Below, one piece after another: positions 1-48,281 of a stretch of DNA of 64,000 nt; the first letter of the stretch is position 1, and each line of letters starts with the position of its first letter. The position numbers and the translations under genes were made by a program. The notes under the pieces were generated by a model. The model was not told the DNA's origin. It saw only the letters and a program-made list of their open reading frames with translations, and did no database searches. Source of the stretch: Patescibacteria group bacterium (GTDB taxonomy: Bacteria; Patescibacteriota; Minisyncoccia; Phycocordibacterales; UBA918); NCBI GenBank assembly GCA_040386275.1, contig JAZKFU010000008.1, positions 108,591 through 172,590 of the forward strand, written 5' to 3'.

Positions 1-1671
1 ATTTCTTTTTGTGCACTCCTGCTCTTTGGTATGCAGGCTAGTCTGGTGCAGGCTGAAATTATTTCTACTTTTGACGCGAGTTATACGGTAAACCCAAATG
101 GGGAAGTAACGGTGCAAGAAACCATCGTCTATGATTTTCAAGGTGAGGAACGTCACGGTATTTTTCGAACGATTATAAACACACATCCGCAACCAGCGAG
201 TGTCTGGTACAAAAAAAGATACATCGATATTGACGTTCAGTCAGTTACTCGTGATGGGCAAGACGAGCCCTATGAACTTACCAATGATTTTGGTAGTACT
301 GAAATTAAAATTGGTAACGCAAATGAAACGATAAGCGGCGTTGCTACCTACGTGCTTTCATATGTTCTGTATGGAGCGTTGTCCTATGGTTCAAGTGGTG
401 CCGAATTTTACTACAATGTTACCGGTAATGATTGGGAAGTCCCTATATCGCTCGCAAGTGCTTCGGTTAACTCAAACAATTTTGGTACAAAGTACGCCTG
501 TTACCAAGGGGCGTACGGTAATACAACTTCGTGCACCAATGCCATTAAAAATGATTCACGAATTACGTTTACCGCTAATGCACTAGAGCCAGGAGAAGGG
601 TTAACGATAGCAACCGAACTTGATGCTGCTGCAATTACAGTGGTTGCAAATGAACAGGTGACGTGGATACTGTTTGGTGCAATCATGGCAGTCCTGTGGT
701 GTGTCGGAATGATAATTGCCCTGTATCGCTTTAGGCGTAGTGCGTACACTCCGAAACCTGTAATTGCACAGTACGAACCATATAAAGATTTTCTACCTAT
801 GCATACAGGGTATTTAGCGGACAATCAGCTTAACCCCCAAGATATTACTGCTGGAGTTTTATATTTGGCACAGCAAGGGTTTATTAAAATTACGCATATT
901 TCAAAATCAGTATTGTATGTTTTTAAAGATACTGATTATGAAATTATGTTGCGCCGACCAATTAGTGAAATACCAACAAAATTTTTAACGTCTGTAAGTG
1001 AATTATTTTTTAAAGCCGATGCACCGGTTGGTACGATTGTGTCGCTCGATAGTTTAAAAAAAGAAGCCCCAAAAAATGCTGAAAAGATTTTACATTTGCA
1101 TCGTGATATTGAAGCTGATCTTATAGAGAAGGGCTTTTATACTAAATCTGCTAACAATATTAAAAAAGTAACCCTTACTATGTTTATACTCATGATAGTG
1201 CTCTTTGGCGGACTATTGTTTGTACCAAATGGAGTCTTTGTTGTTATGTTTGTCGTACTTTTCACTATAATCTGCGGCGCTATTGTTCTGTTTGTATCGC
1301 GACGTACCACTACGGGATTTGAAGCCAAGAATCATCTTGATGGCTTCAAATTATTTTTATCAGTTACCGATAAACAACGATTTGATTTTCATAACGCTCC
1401 CGAAAAAAGCCCCGAGTTATTTATGCAATACCTCCCGTATGCCGTTGCGTTAGGGGTGGAAGAGAAGTGGGCTAAAGTGTTCGAAGGTATCACAATCCCG
1501 CAACCAGAATGGTTTACCGGAAGCTCCATGAATGCATTTTCAGCCTCAGCGTTCACCAGTGAATTTAATAATTTCTCCACAGCGTTTAGCGCCAGTTCTG
1601 GCGTGAGTGGGAGTAGTGGTGGGGGGAGTAGTGGAGGGGGCGGTGGAGGTGGCGGAGGCGGCAGCTGGTAA
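1..1671 (+). CDS. DUF2207-family membrane protein, probably 5' partial (ORF track start at 31 is preceded in frame by hydrophobic ISFCALLLFG to the window edge)
   Basis: Signal-peptide-like N-terminus, N-terminal domain, central TM helices, then a cytoplasmic domain ending in a Gly/Ser-rich tail GGGSSGGGGGGGGGGSW, typical of DUF2207. Confidence 0.5.
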   Translation: MSFCALLLFGMQASLVQAEIISTFDASYTVNPNGEVTVQETIVYDFQGEERHGIFRTIINTHPQPASVWYKKRYIDIDVQSVTRDGQDEPYELTNDFGSTEIKIGNANETISGVATYVLSYVLYGALSYGSSGAEFYYNVTGNDWEVPISLASASVNSNNFGTKYACYQGAYGNTTSCTNAIKNDSRITFTANALEPGEGLTIATELDAAAITVVANEQVTWILFGAIMAVLWCVGMIIALYRFRRSAYTPKPVIAQYEPYKDFLPMHTGYLADNQLNPQDITAGVLYLAQQGFIKITHISKSVLYVFKDTDYEIMLRRPISEIPTKFLTSVSELFFKADAPVGTIVSLDSLKKEAPKNAEKILHLHRDIEADLIEKGFYTKSANNIKKVTLTMFILMIVLFGGLLFVPNGVFVVMFVVLFTIICGAIVLFVSRRTTTGFEAKNHLDGFKLFLSVTDKQRFDFHNAPEKSPELFMQYLPYAVALGVEEKWAKVFEGITIPQPEWFTGSSMNAFSASAFTSEFNNFSTAFSASSGVSGSSGGGSSGGGGGGGGGGSW

Positions 1672-7713: not shown

Positions 7714-7714
7714 G

Positions 7715-7801
7715 CGGAGAGAGGGGGATTCGAACCCCCGATCGGGTTGCCCCGATGCTACCTTTCCAAGGTAGTACAATCAACCGCTCTGCCACCTCTC
7801 C
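7715..7801 (-). tRNA. tRNA-Ser (anticodon GGA)
   Basis: Reverse complement GGAGAGGTGGCAGAGCGGTTGAT...CTACCTTGGAAAGGTAG...GGGGGTTCGAATCCCCCTCTCTCCG folds as a cloverleaf with a 7 bp acceptor stem, anticodon loop UUGGAAA, long variable arm and GTTCGAATC T-loop; no encoded CCA. Confidence 0.85.
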
Positions 7802-29658: not shown

Positions 29659-29750
29659 GTATTTTAGACCTTTTCTGTTGACAACATTAAAATCCCCAAT
29701 CCTAATGCTTGACTTTTGTATTTTAGTATGCTATTGTTTTACCTACCTGA

Positions 29751-30062
29751 GGCACGGTGCCAAAAGGTATTACGAAAGGTCTTTCCATGCCGCCGAACTT
29801 CTCACCGGGGCGCCCATCGCCCCGCGCAGTGTTGACCAAGGTATCATCGATCTCGCCGGGCGCCGCCAGGGACCTGGAGGTGTCCGCGTCCTCGACCACC
29901 GATGTCGACGGCCACGTTCGTTGTGAAAACTTCTGATCGGCCGGCGGCGCCCGTTTCGGGCGAGTTGACCAGGGCGGTTTGCGGAGCAAATCCCAACTAG
30001 GGACAAGCTGCCGCGATGACCGCTTGGTCTGACAAAGAAACAAAAAATATATTGGTGCCGAG
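29751..30062. other. GC-rich (about 65% GC) non-coding insert bounded by 8-bp direct repeats CTACCTGA (29743-29750 and 30063-30070), splitting scpA from scpB
   Basis: Abrupt GC shift against the low-GC background; direct repeats exactly at both boundaries; short inverted ends GGCAC...GTGCC; promoter-like TTGACT-17-TATTGT just upstream and a hairpin terminator just downstream. Confidence 0.35.
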
Positions 30063-42671: not shown

Positions 42672-43589
42672 TTAATCACCGTGTGGTTTTAAATTTGGAA
42701 TAGCATCTTCATTTTTAATAAAGCGATTAAACCAGTTAATTGACTGTTTAAAATATTCCGTTTTGTATTCAGTTATTCCGTGGTCAGCACCTTCAAATAA
42801 AATGAACCGATGCGGTATCTTGTGAGTATACATATCCCGACTCATTTCGATGGAATCAATTGGAGATACACGCCAATCAGCTGTTCCATGCATAAGTAGT
42901 ATAGGAACTTTTTTTGGTAGTTCGTTACTCCAACGTAAAGGAGAGCGTAGTATGAGTTCATTTTTACTTTTACCCCATAGACTTATTTGGTGTTCTCGCC
43001 ACTTGGGTCGTTCTTTACCTTGTCTAATTTGATCTGCAGGAGCTGCAGCTATAACTGCTGACTTTATCCATTTCACCTCACGTAGAAGCATGTATGCCAT
43101 AAGACCACCACGTGAATGTCCTTTAATGCCAATTTTATTTATATCCGCAACTGAAACACTTTTGAGAATATCTTTCAGCTTAACTATACTTGCTATGTCA
43201 TCTTCCCCTCCAAACTTGTCTTTGCCATCTCCGCCTTCAACTCCAGGATATTGGGTGCTTATTACAATGTATCCTTCAAGTGCATATTTAACTAACTGAC
43301 CGTATATTGCCCGTGGTGCTAGAGCTGCAAAATCTCTACTTCCTCCGCGTAAATGAATTATACAAGGTACTTTCTCCTTTAGATTTTTTGGTATTGTAAT
43401 GTATCCAATTACTTTTAATTTTCCGACTTTATATATGAAACGATATGTCTCGACTAGTTGTAACTCATTTTTTGCAGATTCAATTTTTTGTATATCTGAT
43501 AAAAAATCTAATTTTTCAGACAGGGGGTAAGATTCAACCAAGGTAACTGATTTGTTACCTTTTAATTCACCAATAAATTCTTGTATCAT
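42672..43589 (-). CDS. alpha/beta hydrolase (S9 prolyl oligopeptidase / dienelactone hydrolase-like)
   Basis: Nucleophile elbow GHSRGG and downstream Asp/His (HGTADWRV, GADHG). Confidence 0.65.
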   Translation of the reverse strand: MIQEFIGELKGNKSVTLVESYPLSEKLDFLSDIQKIESAKNELQLVETYRFIYKVGKLKVIGYITIPKNLKEKVPCIIHLRGGSRDFAALAPRAIYGQLVKYALEGYIVISTQYPGVEGGDGKDKFGGEDDIASIVKLKDILKSVSVADINKIGIKGHSRGGLMAYMLLREVKWIKSAVIAAAPADQIRQGKERPKWREHQISLWGKSKNELILRSPLRWSNELPKKVPILLMHGTADWRVSPIDSIEMSRDMYTHKIPHRFILFEGADHGITEYKTEYFKQSINWFNRFIKNEDAIPNLKPHGD

Positions 43590-43607
43590 AATCTGATTCT
43601 ACCTTAT

Positions 43608-43650
43608 TAACTTAAATATAAAAAGTTGGACCCCGCGATGCAGGGTCCAA
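43608..43650 (-). terminator. terminator after the GNAT gene
   Basis: TTGGACCC-CGCGATGCA-GGGTCCAA hairpin followed on the minus strand by CTTTTTATATTT. Confidence 0.5.
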
Positions 43651-44139
43651 TTAAAGCAATTTTGCCATTAAGTACTTATCGACAAGACAACCATCAATTT
43701 TCGCTGCTCCTCGAATTGTTCCTTCGATGTTAAAAGCGAATTTTTGATATAAGTGAATCGCCTTAAGATTAATTGTTTGAACATATAGCTGAAGTCGATA
43801 TAGATTCATCAACTTTGCTTCTGTTATTGAATGAGTCATGAGTGCTGACCCTACACCCTTATTGCTAAAGTTGGACGTAACACCTATAGCTAAGGTACCT
43901 ACACCACAATTCCGTTTCATTCTACCTAAAGATATACCTAAATAACCAATAATTACTGCAGTCTCCTCCGCAATCCATAAACGCTCATATTGTTGAGAGA
44001 GACTGAGTCTTTTTGCTAATAAAGATGGTTCTGGAACTTCATCATGTTCATAGAGCATAAACTGTGACTCAGATGTTATCTGAATCATTAATGATGCTAG
44101 TTGCACAGCGTCACGCTCATTTGCTTGTCTTATTAACAT
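43651..44139 (-). CDS. GNAT family N-acetyltransferase (track ORF 43651..44508 over-extends through the GC-rich terminator region)
   Basis: MLIRQANERDAVQLASLM...RLQLYVQTINLKAIHLYQKFAF is the GNAT fold; ATG at 44139. Confidence 0.65.
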   Translation of the reverse strand: MLIRQANERDAVQLASLMIQITSESQFMLYEHDEVPEPSLLAKRLSLSQQYERLWIAEETAVIIGYLGISLGRMKRNCGVGTLAIGVTSNFSNKGVGSALMTHSITEAKLMNLYRLQLYVQTINLKAIHLYQKFAFNIEGTIRGAAKIDGCLVDKYLMAKLL

Positions 44140-44152
44140 GTCGACTACCTCT

Positions 44153-44193
44153 CTTAAGATAAAGGCGCGCCATCCAAAGAAGGATAGCGCGCC
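44153..44193 (-). terminator. GC-rich terminator after the DUF1399-like gene
   Basis: Minus-strand GGCGCGCUAUCC-UUCUUU-GGAUGGCGCGCC hairpin followed by UUUAUCUU. Confidence 0.5.
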
Positions 44194-44212
44194 CGATGCC
44201 ATTGCTGATTGA

Positions 44213-44695
44213 TCAGCTCTGGCAGTTCGTGGAAGCCCCGCAGACGCCGGGGCCGCAGCTGCCCGGAATCTTCGTGAACGCCCAGTGCTCGGAAAGCGTA
44301 CCGAAGGTGCGCTCGGCGGCCTCGAGGGTGTTCCGGACCATGGAGCCGTCGCTCGAGGCCCGCTGAGCCTGGGTGAGCGGCTGGTGGTGCAGGAAGAAGC
44401 CGACCTTCGACTTACAGTAGTCGGCATAGTCGCCGGTGAACAGAATGAAGTTGTGCCAGATCTCGTCGATGTCTTCGGGCGGCGCCATGGAGCCGTCGTT
44501 GGTCGCACAAAGATAGAGGAACTTTTTCATCTCGCCGAACAGCTCGTCCGTGAACTCCGGCGTCCAGCCTTCCTTCACGACCATGCGTTCCTTGAGCGCC
44601 GGGTGGTCGTAGTCCATCATCTTCGCGAGAAGATTCGGATCAGTTGCAAGGCGCTGTCGCTGGGACAGAGCAATAACACTTGTCATCGTGGTCAT
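44213..44695 (-). CDS. GC-rich (about 62% GC) DUF1399/GRDP-like domain protein with Cys-rich C-terminal tail
   Basis: DIDEIWHNFILFTGDYADYC resembles the DUF1399 core motif (recalled from memory); tail GSCGPGVCGASTNCQS; composition far from the genome background. Confidence 0.45.
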   Translation of the reverse strand: MTTMTSVIALSQRQRLATDPNLLAKMMDYDHPALKERMVVKEGWTPEFTDELFGEMKKFLYLCATNDGSMAPPEDIDEIWHNFILFTGDYADYCKSKVGFFLHHQPLTQAQRASSDGSMVRNTLEAAERTFGTLSEHWAFTKIPGSCGPGVCGASTNCQS

Positions 44696-44824
44696 TTTTC
44701 ACCCCTTGAGGTTTATGGTTTGAAGTTGCCTAGGAACTACTGCAGCTTCTTGAATTAAGCCTGCAGATTATGCCATTTAACACCACAAATAGTTAATTGT
44801 CAACTATTAAATAGTCAATGTAAA

Positions 44825-44986
44825 TTAACCTTTTTCGTCACCCATTCTGTCTGAGCTTGTAAAAACTTGAGGCTCATCAGTTAAGTGATCAAATTCATGT
44901 GGCACGGGACGATTTTCTACTCCGACTCTTGTGAGCCATGAGTCAAACTTCAAATATGCCCAGTTTTTAATTTTGTATAAGCACTT
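44825..44986 (-). CDS. hypothetical 54-aa peptide
   Basis: Strong SD AAGGGGAG 6 nt upstream of the ATG; MKCLYKIKNWAYLKFDSWLTRVGVENRPVPHEFDHLTDEPQVFTSSDRMGDEKG; downstream of the radical SAM gene on the same strand. Confidence 0.35.
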   Translation of the reverse strand, partial: KCLYKIKNWAYLKFDSWLTRVGVENRPVPHEFDHLTDEPQVFTSSDRMGDEKG

Positions 44987-45197
44987 CATTTTAGCTCCCC
45001 TTCTTTTCATTTCTAACAGTATAATGGCACATTTTATAAATTTGTCTATAGTTACGTTCAGGTATCTACTAGTTTACGCAATATTGATAAAAGTAAGCTA
45101 AAAGACTCTGGTTTGCTCTAATTGTACTTATTTTAATATTTATTGTTGTAAAATTTAAGCATGTATTATACATTTTTTCTTTTTTAGAAATTCCTTT

Positions 45198-45240
45198 TAG
45201 TTATAAAAAAAGCCACTGTAAATTTTCACTTACAGTGGCG
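45198..45240 (-). terminator. Rho-independent terminator after the radical SAM gene
   Basis: GCCACTGTAA-ATTTTCAC-TTACAGTGGC perfect 10 bp hairpin followed on the minus strand by UUUUUUUAUAAC. Confidence 0.6.
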
Positions 45241-45260
45241 TAAAGATCTCCCAACTTCAC

Positions 45261-46727
45261 TTAGCCCGATTGGTCCAAATATTTTGTAATCTTTGGACTA
45301 TAGAACATTGAAAGAACTTCATCTTCAAATAGTAACCCAAGAGTCGAAAGACGGATACCAGATTCTATACCTAGTTGGTAACGATTGAGTAATCCAAGTT
45401 CCAAAAACTTCATTTCAAGCTTTTGATAGTGAGATACTGATTCGTGAGCAGCACCCTCAAAGGATTGAAATGCTAGTTTGCCTTTACGCATACCGATGAC
45501 ATATGATCGAGCTAGGTACTCGTTCTGGTCAAGTTTAAGCGCACTATCAATAGTTTTTCCTCCGTTCTCCATGTGCTCTATGTAGGCATTGATGTCGGGC
45601 GTATTGCGAAAGAGAACACCCTCGTAGACATTAGAGTCTTTCGAGTTAGATTTTACACTAACATGAGAATAGGAAGATGCACCGACGCCAAGTAAATTAC
45701 TGTCTGTAGAAGTCAGTATTTTATTGAAAGTCATTGCGTGACGATCATCAAGTACAAAACGATTCCCATCAACTTGGCGATATCCCATGTCAGTAAGTTC
45801 TTGCCAGAGGAGCATACGACCCACTAAAGTGTCATACTCTCCTTCGAAATCCCCTTTTTTGTCTGGATTTTTATACCATTCTCCTTGTGGACGTTTAGCA
45901 AATCGACCGTGATACCACGTTAGTTGCGGTGGGCGCACTATTCTAAGTATATTGAGGTTTTGCCACACCTCATCGAGAGTGCCTTTATAGAGTGACTGGA
46001 TGAGGTCTAGGTTCCAGTTATCGAAGACTTGTCCGACAAGTTCGCAGGCAAGTATTGCGGTATCTTGCTTATATCCACGTGCCGCTCGCTTTAATACTTC
46101 ATCATCAAAGGATTGGATTCCAAAGCTAATCCTGGTTACCCCATGCTTTTTTAGAATTTGAAGCTTTTCATAACCACCTGGTGCAGTAATGGTTAGAGGA
46201 CTCGCTTCCATGCATATTTCCACATCCTCCTTAATATGGAATTCTCTACGGATGGTGTTGATGATAGCTACTAGTTGATTACTCTCAAGAATCAGGGGTG
46301 TTCCACCACCGATGTAAATTGAATTGATTACAGTTTCTGATGATCGCAGCTGGCTGCCCCATTCCTGTATTTCAACTTTAAGAGATTGTAAGTAGCGCTC
46401 AACTTGTTCAGTACGACTTGTCGAACTGTGATTTTTGCCCCGATAGGTCTTTACAGCGTAGTGGCAAAAGGTGCACAGTGTCTCACAGAAAGCTATGTGG
46501 ACGTATAAACTTGATTCTCCGTGATAAGAAAAATCATTTATTGCATCACCCGTTTTGACTTTTTGTAGTGCATTAAGTGGCGGGTAGGTAACAACTGAGT
46601 GACTTCCACCTAAAATGAAGCGTTTGACGAACACTTCAGCTTCACGAAGTTTTGGTAGTACGTCTGGTATACCAAGTTGTAAAAGAGCATCGGTAGCCTT
46701 TGAGATAGCAGCCGTTTTGTCTCTCAT
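45261..46727 (-). CDS. HemN-like radical SAM protein (coproporphyrinogen III oxidase / HemW / class C rSAM family)
   Basis: CETLCTFCHY (CX3CX2C), IYIGGGTP, EICMEASP family motifs; 488 aa. Confidence 0.8.
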   Translation of the reverse strand: MRDKTAAISKATDALLQLGIPDVLPKLREAEVFVKRFILGGSHSVVTYPPLNALQKVKTGDAINDFSYHGESSLYVHIAFCETLCTFCHYAVKTYRGKNHSSTSRTEQVERYLQSLKVEIQEWGSQLRSSETVINSIYIGGGTPLILESNQLVAIINTIRREFHIKEDVEICMEASPLTITAPGGYEKLQILKKHGVTRISFGIQSFDDEVLKRAARGYKQDTAILACELVGQVFDNWNLDLIQSLYKGTLDEVWQNLNILRIVRPPQLTWYHGRFAKRPQGEWYKNPDKKGDFEGEYDTLVGRMLLWQELTDMGYRQVDGNRFVLDDRHAMTFNKILTSTDSNLLGVGASSYSHVSVKSNSKDSNVYEGVLFRNTPDINAYIEHMENGGKTIDSALKLDQNEYLARSYVIGMRKGKLAFQSFEGAAHESVSHYQKLEMKFLELGLLNRYQLGIESGIRLSTLGLLFEDEVLSMFYSPKITKYLDQSG

Positions 46728-47795: not shown

Positions 47796-48281
47796 TTAAT
47801 TTAAATATAAAAAGACCATCGGGAGGATGAGCCACCAGAAGAACCATTCTTTGGGGGCGAATAAGGAGGCTATGGGGGTGCCGGGGGTTACGAATTCGGT
47901 TACAGGCAATACGTGGAAGCTGTAAATCATGATGAGAATGGTGGCGGCGAGCACCAAGAGGATTTTCTTGAAGAGGGTTTCGAAGCGTTTTTCGCGGTAG
48001 GCGTCGGGCATTACCCGAGCGACGAGGATGGTGGCAATTGTGGTGAAGATAGTAAAGATGATTACTTTGCCGATGGCGACGGTTTGTTCGCTTGCGCCGT
48101 TCGGAAGAAACGACTCGTAGTATGGAAACTCGAGCGAAATGAGTAACGCTAAATATAAACCAAAAATGAGATTGACGATTGATTGTCTCCCCCGCACCAA
48201 CACCCAGACTAAAAAGAAACCAAAGACTGCAAGGAGAAATACCAGTTCTTGGAAAATACTGAGGAAATACGTCGTGTCCAT
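47796..48281 (-). CDS. hypothetical integral membrane protein
   Basis: 161 aa, about 5 TM helices. Confidence 0.4.
   Translation of the reverse strand: MDTTYFLSIFQELVFLLAVFGFFLVWVLVRGRQSIVNLIFGLYLALLISLEFPYYESFLPNGASEQTVAIGKVIIFTIFTTIATILVARVMPDAYREKRFETLFKKILLVLAATILIMIYSFHVLPVTEFVTPGTPIASLFAPKEWFFWWLILPMVFLYLN

Follow-up and report, generated by a model that had tools for sequence, protein, structure and literature searches.

A recurrent GC anomaly in a UCP032817-like gene with a conserved leader in Patescibacteria

Introduction

Genes of atypical base composition are commonly taken to be recent horizontal acquisitions that later ameliorate. The gene examined here lies on the reverse strand (44213..44695) of a 64,000-nt window, the whole stretch of DNA that was analyzed, from a Patescibacteria group bacterium (assembly GCA_040386275.1, contig JAZKFU010000008.1, positions 108,591 to 172,590). 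It encodes a protein resembling the UCP032817-like family (PF27765), and we refer to the gene and its homologues as UCP, with the labels L001 to L115 denoting the loci and contigs that were compared. Like recently acquired genes, UCP has atypical GC content and codon usage, a patchy distribution across phyla, and copies on plasmids and in an island. It differs from them in that the anomaly is common to syntenic orthologues whose neighbors are synonymously saturated, and in that it survives turnover between C and G. For these two reasons, the composition of UCP does not indicate recency.

UCP agrees with PF27765 in length, in its helical architecture, and in the core WHNFILFT..DY..C, but this family is itself uncharacterized (PIRSF UCP032817), so membership explains no mechanism. 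A further comparison is with the GRDP-like proteins (DUF1399, PF07173). UCP resembles what we take to be the DUF1399 motif, D-I/L-x-x-W-H-x-x-x-L-x-x-x-x-Y-x-x-x-C, but no significant profile match to PF07173 is obtained with the protein or with the family consensus. Plant GRDPs are also larger, and their C-termini are Gly-rich, whereas that of UCP is Cys-rich (PMC4299439). Our literature search on UCP032817 and PF07173/DUF1399 found plant work only.

Two other described systems bear on the locus. The hairpin downstream of UCP resembles the intrinsic terminators and attenuators that lie between a highly expressed first gene and the enzyme genes behind it, in that it has a GC-rich stem, a T-rich 3′ side, and covariation. 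It differs in its T tract, which in the window is weak, and its main role may be that of a 3′ stabilizer. At the protein level, NHLP and Nif11 are families of long-leader precursors of ribosomally synthesized and post-translationally modified peptides (RiPPs). UCP is similar to these in having an N-terminal domain of ~100 or more residues that is conserved in the family, a short, variable, and Cys-rich C-terminus, and C39 exporters near some members, but it has no double-glycine motif and no known maturase, carries enzyme-like invariant residues, and has a tail that is invariant within its subfamily.

Results

Compositional anomaly and synonymous conservation

The interval 44153..44700 is the GC-richest 548-nt stretch in the 64 kb, at 59.3% compared to 42.8% for the whole window and a maximum of 52.2% elsewhere (z about 4). 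The earlier note had described it as about 62% GC against a background of about 42%; the anomaly stands, with the correction that the 62% is a peak value over 300 nt and that the UCP coding sequence (CDS) is at 60.7% (0.607). Across the first, second, and third codon positions, its GC content is 0.55, 0.45, and 0.83 (GC3 of 0.826). The genes adjoining UCP have GC3 values of 0.23–0.36, and 69 other open reading frames (ORFs) of the window have a mean of 0.39 (standard deviation 0.08, maximum 0.63), which places UCP at z = 5.5. The ORF proposed in the earlier note, 160 aa with a TGA stop, is recovered between an ATG at 44695 and a TGA at 44213..44215; in the database, on a 282-kb contig of a metagenome-assembled genome, it is annotated as a hypothetical protein with a 157-aa start, three codons further in. 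UCP prefers AAG, GAG, CAG, CCG, GGC, TTC, and GTC, a usage of the type seen in high-GC organisms. Host translational selection was considered as a cause of the high GC3 and rejected, because the host genes for ribosomal proteins, DnaK, and elongation factors favor the opposite codons.

The anomaly recurs in several classes of Patescibacteria. UCP has a GC3 of 0.65–0.93 in the clade of the window, 0.66–0.87 in UBA3466, Saccharibacteria, and related lineages, and 0.85 in L102, and the flanks of the GC3-rich Patescibacteria copies are at 36–48% GC. A GC excess is seen in most of the Patescibacteria copies that bear the 5′ leader described below, and likewise in most of those with a Cys-rich tail, and distant Cys-tail members in this phylum lie 8–23 GC points above their flanks; the Bacteroidota subfamily shows no excess over its flanks. 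In every locus measured, GC content falls in the order UCP > GNAT > methyltransferase among the genes of the unit. The same order is seen in L006, which has a GC-rich host and in which the whole operon is GC-poorer than its flanks. In the copies compared, high-GC-type codon usage is a property of the UCP family in many lineages of the candidate phyla radiation (CPR).

Comparison of the window with its relatives gives a nucleotide identity of 88–97% within about 44600..44177 and of 45–75% outside it. Across six syntenic genomes, the synonymous divergence (dS) of UCP is 0.41–0.90, while the GNAT and S9 hydrolase genes that follow it are saturated in most pairs (proportion of synonymous differences, pS, of 0.65–0.86). 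At four-fold degenerate codons whose amino acid is invariant in the six genomes, the third base is also invariant at 29% of sites in UCP, compared to 0% in the GNAT gene and 3% in the S9 gene (Fisher p = 7e-6 for UCP versus its neighbors), with less than 2% identity expected by chance from the observed base frequencies. Both GC3 and synonymous conservation peak where the protein is most constrained, and the first 30 codons at the 5′ end are graded in GC. Inside the window clade, C<->T and A<->G make up most of the four-fold differences. Comparisons between Patescibacteria clades show mainly C<->G, at 9–17 of ~55 sites, with both sides at a GC3 of at least 0.8. Because the proteobacterial copies of UCP are without the Patescibacteria leader, this C<->G turnover occurred in leader-bearing, low-GC lineages, and therefore something kept G or C at these sites.

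An overlapping gene on the opposite strand would explain the synonymous constraint and the odd composition together, and a long antisense ORF (44285..44758, forward strand) is indeed present, as it is with every GC3-rich copy of UCP. Avoidance of the codons TTA, CTA, and TCA, however, which is common to all GC3-rich genes, would open such a frame automatically. It is also missing in L011, the only lower-GC3 copy listed with a low-GC host, and its translation is of low complexity and rich in R, V, L, and G. We therefore reject it as a compositional artifact and regard an antisense gene as extremely improbable. The frame 43651..44508 on the reverse strand, which had been called artefactual, is likewise not a single gene: it joins the real GNAT gene (43651..44139), whose domain begins at the ATG at 44139 and whose orthologues are 162 aa long, to an off-frame read-through of the GC-rich UCP CDS. 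These 123 upstream codons (44140..44508), rich in R, P, T, and S, extend the GNAT ORF artificially to 285 aa.

Synteny and operon partners

A common arrangement is found in more than 15 independent assemblies, consisting of a small ORF, the promoter, the leader, UCP, the hairpin, the GNAT gene, and then either an S9 hydrolase or a methyltransferase gene. The order UCP–hairpin–GNAT–S9 occurs in L001–4, L005, L085–88, L094–96, L097–100, and L101, which derive from unrelated samples and assemblers. The alignment of L097 with the window is unbroken from 47805 to 42671, and the two have dnaJ, a 161-aa gene, a radical S-adenosylmethionine (SAM) gene, and the downstream histidine kinase in common. 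The earlier note had kept open an assembly chimera, in which a high-GC fragment would have been spliced into a low-GC contig, and the compositional boundaries are in fact sharp. Both junctions, however, recur in the >15 assemblies, which were built from unrelated samples by separate pipelines (ENA, JGI, Logan, and NCBI), and the collinearity of L097 with the window extends all the way from dnaJ to the S9 gene. The boundaries moreover coincide with the start codon region and a probably functional hairpin, and the GC content grades over the 5′ 30 codons as it does in real genes. Since so many independent assemblies carry the same arrangement, a chimera is excluded, and we regard it as next to impossible.

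Synteny extends to the distant relative L105, in which the order grpE–dnaK–dnaJ–Impact–161aa–…–UCP–GNAT–methyltransferase reproduces the dnaK neighborhood of the window and L097. Identities of L105 to the window are 83% for DnaK, 73% for DnaJ, 71% for UCP, 53% for the 161-aa protein, and 42% for GNAT, such that the UCP protein diverges about as slowly as DnaJ in this comparison. Because L105 shares the dnaK neighborhood, the UCP locus is old in this part of Patescibacteria. UCP is at the same site in all seven of the syntenic relatives recovered, although empty sites were not searched for directly.

The immediate neighbors of UCP in the window are the GNAT gene, the S9 hydrolase gene, the radical SAM gene, and the small ORF. 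Its borders are the promoter and leader on one side and the hairpin on the other, and no integrase, tRNA, direct repeats, or attC-like sites were found at them; the only tRNA in the window is at 7714..7801. The GNAT N-acetyltransferase gene (43651..44139, reverse strand; 162 aa), identified with Pfam and NCBIfam, has a host-like GC3 of 0.27. It adjoins UCP in the window clade, L006–L011, L093, L102, L103, and L105; on the plasmid contig L089, the two genes are close to each other. The lineages with a UCP–GNAT pair comprise the window clade, UBA3466, Saccharibacteria, Minisyncoccota, a Pseudomonadota metagenome-assembled genome, and a Roseicyclus genome; L102, L103, and L105 are UCP–GNAT contigs with low-GC flanks. 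On the mobilizable plasmid, a Macro-domain gene intervenes between UCP and GNAT.

The third gene of the unit in the window clade encodes an S9-type alpha/beta hydrolase of 305 aa (42672..43589, reverse strand), identified with Pfam and syntenic in seven relatives, and its place is taken in other lineages by a TPMT/TehB-like SAM methyltransferase. The partnership extends to distant members of the UCP family, which are directly followed by homologous S9-type hydrolases in Flavobacterium, Chryseobacterium, Kaistella, and Kangiella and, in other cases, by methyltransferases. Upstream of the promoter is a small conserved ORF of 61 aa (44825..45010, reverse strand), which is found at the same position in L097, L094, L085, and L009/L010 and thus precedes the promoter in both the window clade and the Saccharibacteria. 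Its product has a conserved acidic C-terminus with the motif ENRP..(E/D)YD.L.(D/E)EP..F..SDRMGDEKG and no Pfam match. This ORF may be an operon partner and the fourth member of the unit.

Promoter, leader, and downstream hairpin

Upstream of UCP is a promoter-like site on the reverse strand (44775..44803), with TTGACA at 44798..44803, a 17-nt spacer, and TG-n-TTAAAT at 44775..44780. Its position is conserved in 10 of 12 aligned loci, and the form common to the Patescibacteria copies is AT-rich and reads TTGACA-17-TGnTTAnAT. A consensus promoter scanner does not list the site in the window, as its second hexamer has T at position 2. Transcription would start near 44768, and the region from there to the start codon (44696..44768, reverse strand) forms a conserved 5′ leader of ~70–80 nt, delineated by alignments and RNAalifold. 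Within the leader, 44740..44767 form a P1 hairpin that shows compensatory changes, and 44726..44737 carry the invariant palindrome GTTCCTAGGCAA. The leader also contains a C-rich tract, and its ribosome-binding site is covered by an anti-Shine–Dalgarno/Shine–Dalgarno (SD) hairpin, ACCUCAAGGGGU (44700..44712). RNAalifold finds compensatory changes in 5 of its 14 pairs, and in the Patescibacteria copies, the invariant palindrome is GTTCCTAGGAAA.

The window and each of 11 loci contain a single copy of the leader motif, directly 5′ of the UCP start wherever this start is known. All eight matches in metagenomes lie just upstream of an ORF start; seven of these ORFs are recognizable UCP genes, and the eighth is a cut ORF with a different N-terminus. 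In total, the leader is present in the window, L007, L009, L010, L085, L094, L097, L102, L105, and L106–L113. A search of 43600..45300 against Rfam 15 gave no relevant match even at E ≤ 5, and the leader is a candidate for a new cis-regulatory element specific to UCP genes. In L001–L004, four independent assemblies end at the same base (positions 1..133), 133 bp upstream of UCP; the break adjoins a run of nine G and the leader there is divergent, which suggests strain variation or a sequencing problem.

A GC-rich hairpin with a weak T tract (44153..44194, reverse strand) separates UCP from the GNAT gene, as indicated by folding and covariation. The stem-loop itself (44194..44163) has 13 pairs, of which 9 are G-C, a 6-nt loop, and the tail TTATCTTAAG, with a fold z-score of −3.2. 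A hairpin follows the UCP stop codon in 16 of 18 loci examined, and 6 of 12 pairs show compensatory changes among 13 aligned Patescibacteria copies. The GC-rich terminator claimed earlier is therefore supported as far as the stem is concerned and less so in its T tract, which is weak in the window (TTTATCTT) and better in relatives; we read the element as a putative intrinsic terminator or attenuator, or as a 3′ stabilizer. The GNAT gene is itself followed by a hairpin that resembles a terminator and has a T run (43626..43650, reverse strand).

The UCP protein and its family

The UCP protein is described from its ORF, its homologues, their alignments, and an AlphaFold2 (AF2) model. All 39 close homologues, at 37–92% identity and including those that are 86–92% identical, carry precomputed PF27765 matches, among them P0001, the representative of the 90% cluster to which the UCP protein itself belongs; these matches are strong, if indirect, evidence for its assignment to PF27765. 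Against NCBIfam and the Pfam copy that we scanned, which is without the PF27765 model, the protein matched no family; scans of the family consensus with Pfam and NCBIfam gave nothing useful. A profile search of 1.84 billion representatives recovered 11,501 family relatives at E ≤ 1e-3. PADLOC and PHROGs profiles gave no match to the protein, and no relative was found among IMG/VR viral contigs.

Residues R37, D77, W80, H81, F83–L85, Y90, C94, H103, H104, P106, and W138 are invariant across 12 divergent members. The core R..D..WH.FIL....Y...C........HH.P is complete in UCP and invariant in these 12 and in 40 close members. The motif DIDEIWHNFILFTGDYADYC, to which the earlier note had drawn attention, lies in the most conserved part of the family. 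The assignment to DUF1399/GRDP that was drawn from this motif finds little support: PF07173 has no match to the UCP protein at E ≤ 10 and none to a consensus of 185 relatives (39 close homologues and 146 family representatives), and among 40 close relatives just three give a match, the best of them at E = 0.02. The NCBI product name of some relatives is nonetheless 'glycine-rich domain-containing protein', and the motif leaves a remote relationship of the UCP family to GRDP-like/DUF1399 proteins as a possible lead.

The protein ends in the Cys-rich tail IPGSCGPGVCGASTNCQS, with three cysteines, and within the UCP subfamily the tail IPGSCGPGVCGASTNCQ is nearly invariant across phyla. Among 146 representatives of the family, in contrast, the Cys-rich C-terminal tail varies, with C-x-[GP]-S-T-N-C-Q as a frequent ending, and the invariant polar set (D/H/Y/C/HH) is kept in subfamilies that have no Cys tail. 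The AF2 model (pLDDT of 87.5) is all-helical, apart from a beta-bridge between residues 105 and 156, and the Cys-rich tail packs on the H-H-x-P loop. A search of the PDB returned no structural relatives.

The UCP family is mobile across phyla, with proteobacterial and Patescibacteria sequences interleaving in the tree. Copies are found on a mobilizable plasmid (L089–91, with Mob/TraG), and the L006 copy lies in an island between a putative integrase fragment and a serine recombinase, both ORFs having been read by eye from motifs. L089–L091 are metagenomic, plasmid-like contigs that encode RPA, ParA, MobA, TraG, and a RES-Xre toxin–antitoxin pair. They carry two family members, one with a GC3 of 0.83 and the conserved tail and one with a GC3 of 0.45 and a different tail, with the Macro-domain gene and the GNAT gene between them. 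More distantly, a 147-aa hypothetical protein that is ~34% identical to the family core is encoded on an E. coli plasmid (L114; NZ_CP095085.1, 7269..7712), beside genes for an ABC ATPase, a JmjC-domain protein, and a DUF2164 protein. Similar proteins are found on 24 similar small E. coli plasmids, which are ColE1-like, mobilizable, and ~7.9 kb in length. A Gloeothece plasmid (L115; NC_014534.1, 4959..6933) encodes a fusion protein in which the family domain is N-terminal to a TIGR04222 membrane domain, and a gene for a TPMT/TehB-like methyltransferase follows and overlaps the fusion, a repetition of the methyltransferase partnership in cyanobacteria.

With regard to function, we propose with low confidence that UCP may be a module for metal or thiol chemistry, with a Cys/His site formed by the invariant residues and the tail. 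This reading follows from the invariant set in members without tails, the Cys-rich tails with three or more cysteines, the docking of the tail in the model, and the recurrent partners. The acetyl-, methyl-, and hydrolase partners would either cooperate with the protein or act upon it. A different function, that of a RiPP-like precursor or scaffold, would make the helical domain a leader peptide and the Cys-rich tail a core that the GNAT would acetylate, the methyltransferase methylate, and the S9 enzyme cleave after Pro. The conserved N-terminal domain and the hypervariable, Cys-rich tails of the 146 representatives fit such a precursor, as do the tandem or multiple copies in L022, L082, L089, and L008 and the exporters that adjoin distant family members. 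A hairpin between the precursor and enzyme genes is moreover a feature of many RiPP operons, and the hairpin downstream of UCP separates the putative precursor from the enzyme genes in this way. The supposed leader peptide, however, has invariant D, H, Y, C, and HH residues typical of an active or metal site, also where there is no Cys tail; the tail is almost invariant across phyla in the UCP subfamily; and the AF2 model docks it on the domain. The HemN-like radical SAM gene upstream in the window would suit a maturation pathway, but it is not a conserved neighbor, and the adjacent genes are only those for GNAT, S9, and class I methyltransferase proteins, with no recognized maturase family among them. 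Taken together, we find a RiPP-like precursor rather unlikely.

ATP-binding cassette (ABC) exporters with a C39 peptidase occur near distant UCP-family members in 14 of 84 loci, as do HlyD proteins and TonB-dependent receptors. Distant members without a Cys tail adjoin these genes and one for a conserved, unannotated protein of ~290 aa (L026, L035, L036, L049, L054, L055, L061, L065, L069, L072, L073, L081, L083, L084, and others). This context points to a link between distant members and exported peptides in Bacteroidota, Gammaproteobacteria, and cyanobacteria.

Other features of the window

Upstream of the unit is the gene for a HemN-like radical SAM protein (45261..46727, reverse strand) with a weak match to the STM4012 family. 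Involvement of this protein was considered and rejected: beyond the closest relatives (L097/L098) the gene is not conserved, so that it probably has nothing to do with the unit. The 161-aa ORF (47796..48281, reverse strand) has no Pfam match and adjoins dnaJ/Impact in L097 and L105. It has a GC3 of 0.62 in both the window and L097 although its dS is saturated (2.06), and it is a second, milder case of gene-specific GC3 retention. The window also contains a second GC-rich island (29750..30050) of ~300 nt at 60–70% GC, in the intergenic gap between two reverse-strand ORFs, in which we find no convincing ORF, no Rfam match, and a fold z-score of only −1.3.

Discussion

The explanation that we favor, and that we hold to be slightly likelier right than wrong, is that UCP is a genuine, long-resident chromosomal gene of Patescibacteria, neither a chimera nor a new cassette. 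It would be the first and separately regulated gene of a small conserved unit, transcribed from a sigma-70-type promoter with an 80-nt leader. With its 5′ hairpin and the hairpin that sequesters the SD sequence, this leader probably controls translation and shields the 5′ end, and the GC-rich hairpin would end or attenuate most transcripts before the GNAT and S9 (or methyltransferase) genes. A gene-specific force would then keep GC3 high despite synonymous turnover and divergence at the level of the family; a force that retains G or C at the synonymous sites of UCP is the account of its composition that we favor, at roughly even odds. The likeliest such force may be selection on the mRNA, acting through a long-lived message. 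This candidate is the most coherent one, given that the GC-rich body is bounded by a 5′-proximal hairpin and a strong 3′ hairpin, both of which would be protective. GC-biased conversion is an alternative retaining force. A more specific version, in which a GC3 above 80% is held by message selection, the mRNA is stable and gated, and the product combines a new fold with a Cys/His site or serves as a scaffold for its partners, seems to us a good deal less probable and is put forward as speculation.

Several observations weigh against the favored explanation. Some leader-bearing copies have a GC3 that is host-like or intermediate (0.44 in L105, 0.51 in L093, and 0.54 in L011), and a value of 0.65 is found in L101, which belongs to the window clade; because of these copies, the UCP protein does not need GC-rich codons. 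Polarized by majority rule on terminal branches, singleton synonymous changes number 28 from GC to AT and 1 from AT to GC, a ratio that resembles decay more than equilibrium but that we do not take as proof of decay, as this polarization is itself biased toward GC-to-AT changes. In the closest pair, the window and L097, the dS of UCP (0.55) is about that of the neighbors (0.64–0.71). Within the clade, UCP and flank distances are uncorrelated in a Mantel test (p = 0.16–0.9), which is underpowered for this comparison and for which the control of GNAT versus S9 gave p = 0.001; an exchange of alleles would equally give such decoupling. Beyond its composition, the CDS shows no consistent structure, with z-scores from +1.7 to −5.8 across orthologues under permutation of synonymous codons, and the fold z-score of the whole transcript is only −2.5. 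Finally, the family moves between phyla, as the plasmid (L089–91) and island (L006) copies attest.

Many of these observations would be accommodated if the locus were old but its coding region had been overwritten in situ, perhaps repeatedly, by GC-rich alleles that circulate horizontally, with recombination anchored in the leader, the gene core, and the hairpin, and with the present copies ameliorating at different stages. The star-like UCP distances uncoupled from the flanks, the 28:1 bias of singleton changes, the equal dS of UCP and flanks in the closest pair, the confinement of high identity to about 44600..44177 in every comparison, and the graded series of GC3 values (0.93, 0.91, 0.88 … 0.65 … 0.44) all fit this account, as do the codon usage of high-GC type and the mobility of a family that spans phyla and is borne on plasmids. 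Yet 5.8 billion proteins and the genome and metagenome scans yielded no GC-rich donor of the window-clade alleles or of the CPR leader, and the nearest copy outside the CPR is 79% identical, has a GC3 of 0.59, and has a different upstream region. The window-clade alleles are also monophyletic, with the window and L097 being sisters in UCP and flanks alike, and identity between host-like and GC-rich alleles would be too low for homologous exchange. With the borders being free of repeats, integrase, and tRNA and no viral copies of UCP having been found, we judge allele replacement to be unlikely.

The earlier note had considered a recent transfer from a high-GC donor to be likely, and the strikingly foreign composition and codon usage, the related genes in Alphaproteobacteria, and the plasmid copy with a GC3 of 0.83 are what a gene acquired by this genome and not yet ameliorated would lead one to expect. 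The foreign type of the codon usage holds, but its recency does not, as the operon is conserved across Patescibacteria lineages. The same site, leader, and hairpin are found in at least seven divergent relatives whose neighboring genes are synonymously saturated, synteny reaches as deep as L105, the partner GNAT gene is conserved across phyla with a host-like composition, and the borders carry no signatures of mobility. A recent acquisition is accordingly very unlikely. An ancient high-GC origin of UCP is possible, and the composition does not date such an event.

Atypical GC content and codon usage are routinely read as signs of recent transfer or of misassembly. Because both of these readings fail for UCP, either a gene-specific force or a hidden pool of alleles must maintain its anomaly. 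What is new here is an inherited and maintained GC anomaly accompanied by an undescribed leader RNA that is apparently dedicated to UCP genes. If selection on the message is indeed the cause, atypical composition would in this case be an adaptive, heritable trait of a gene and not a timestamp of its transfer. UCP offers a compact and tractable entry both to this compositional puzzle and to a large, uncharacterized protein family in organisms whose cultivation is difficult.

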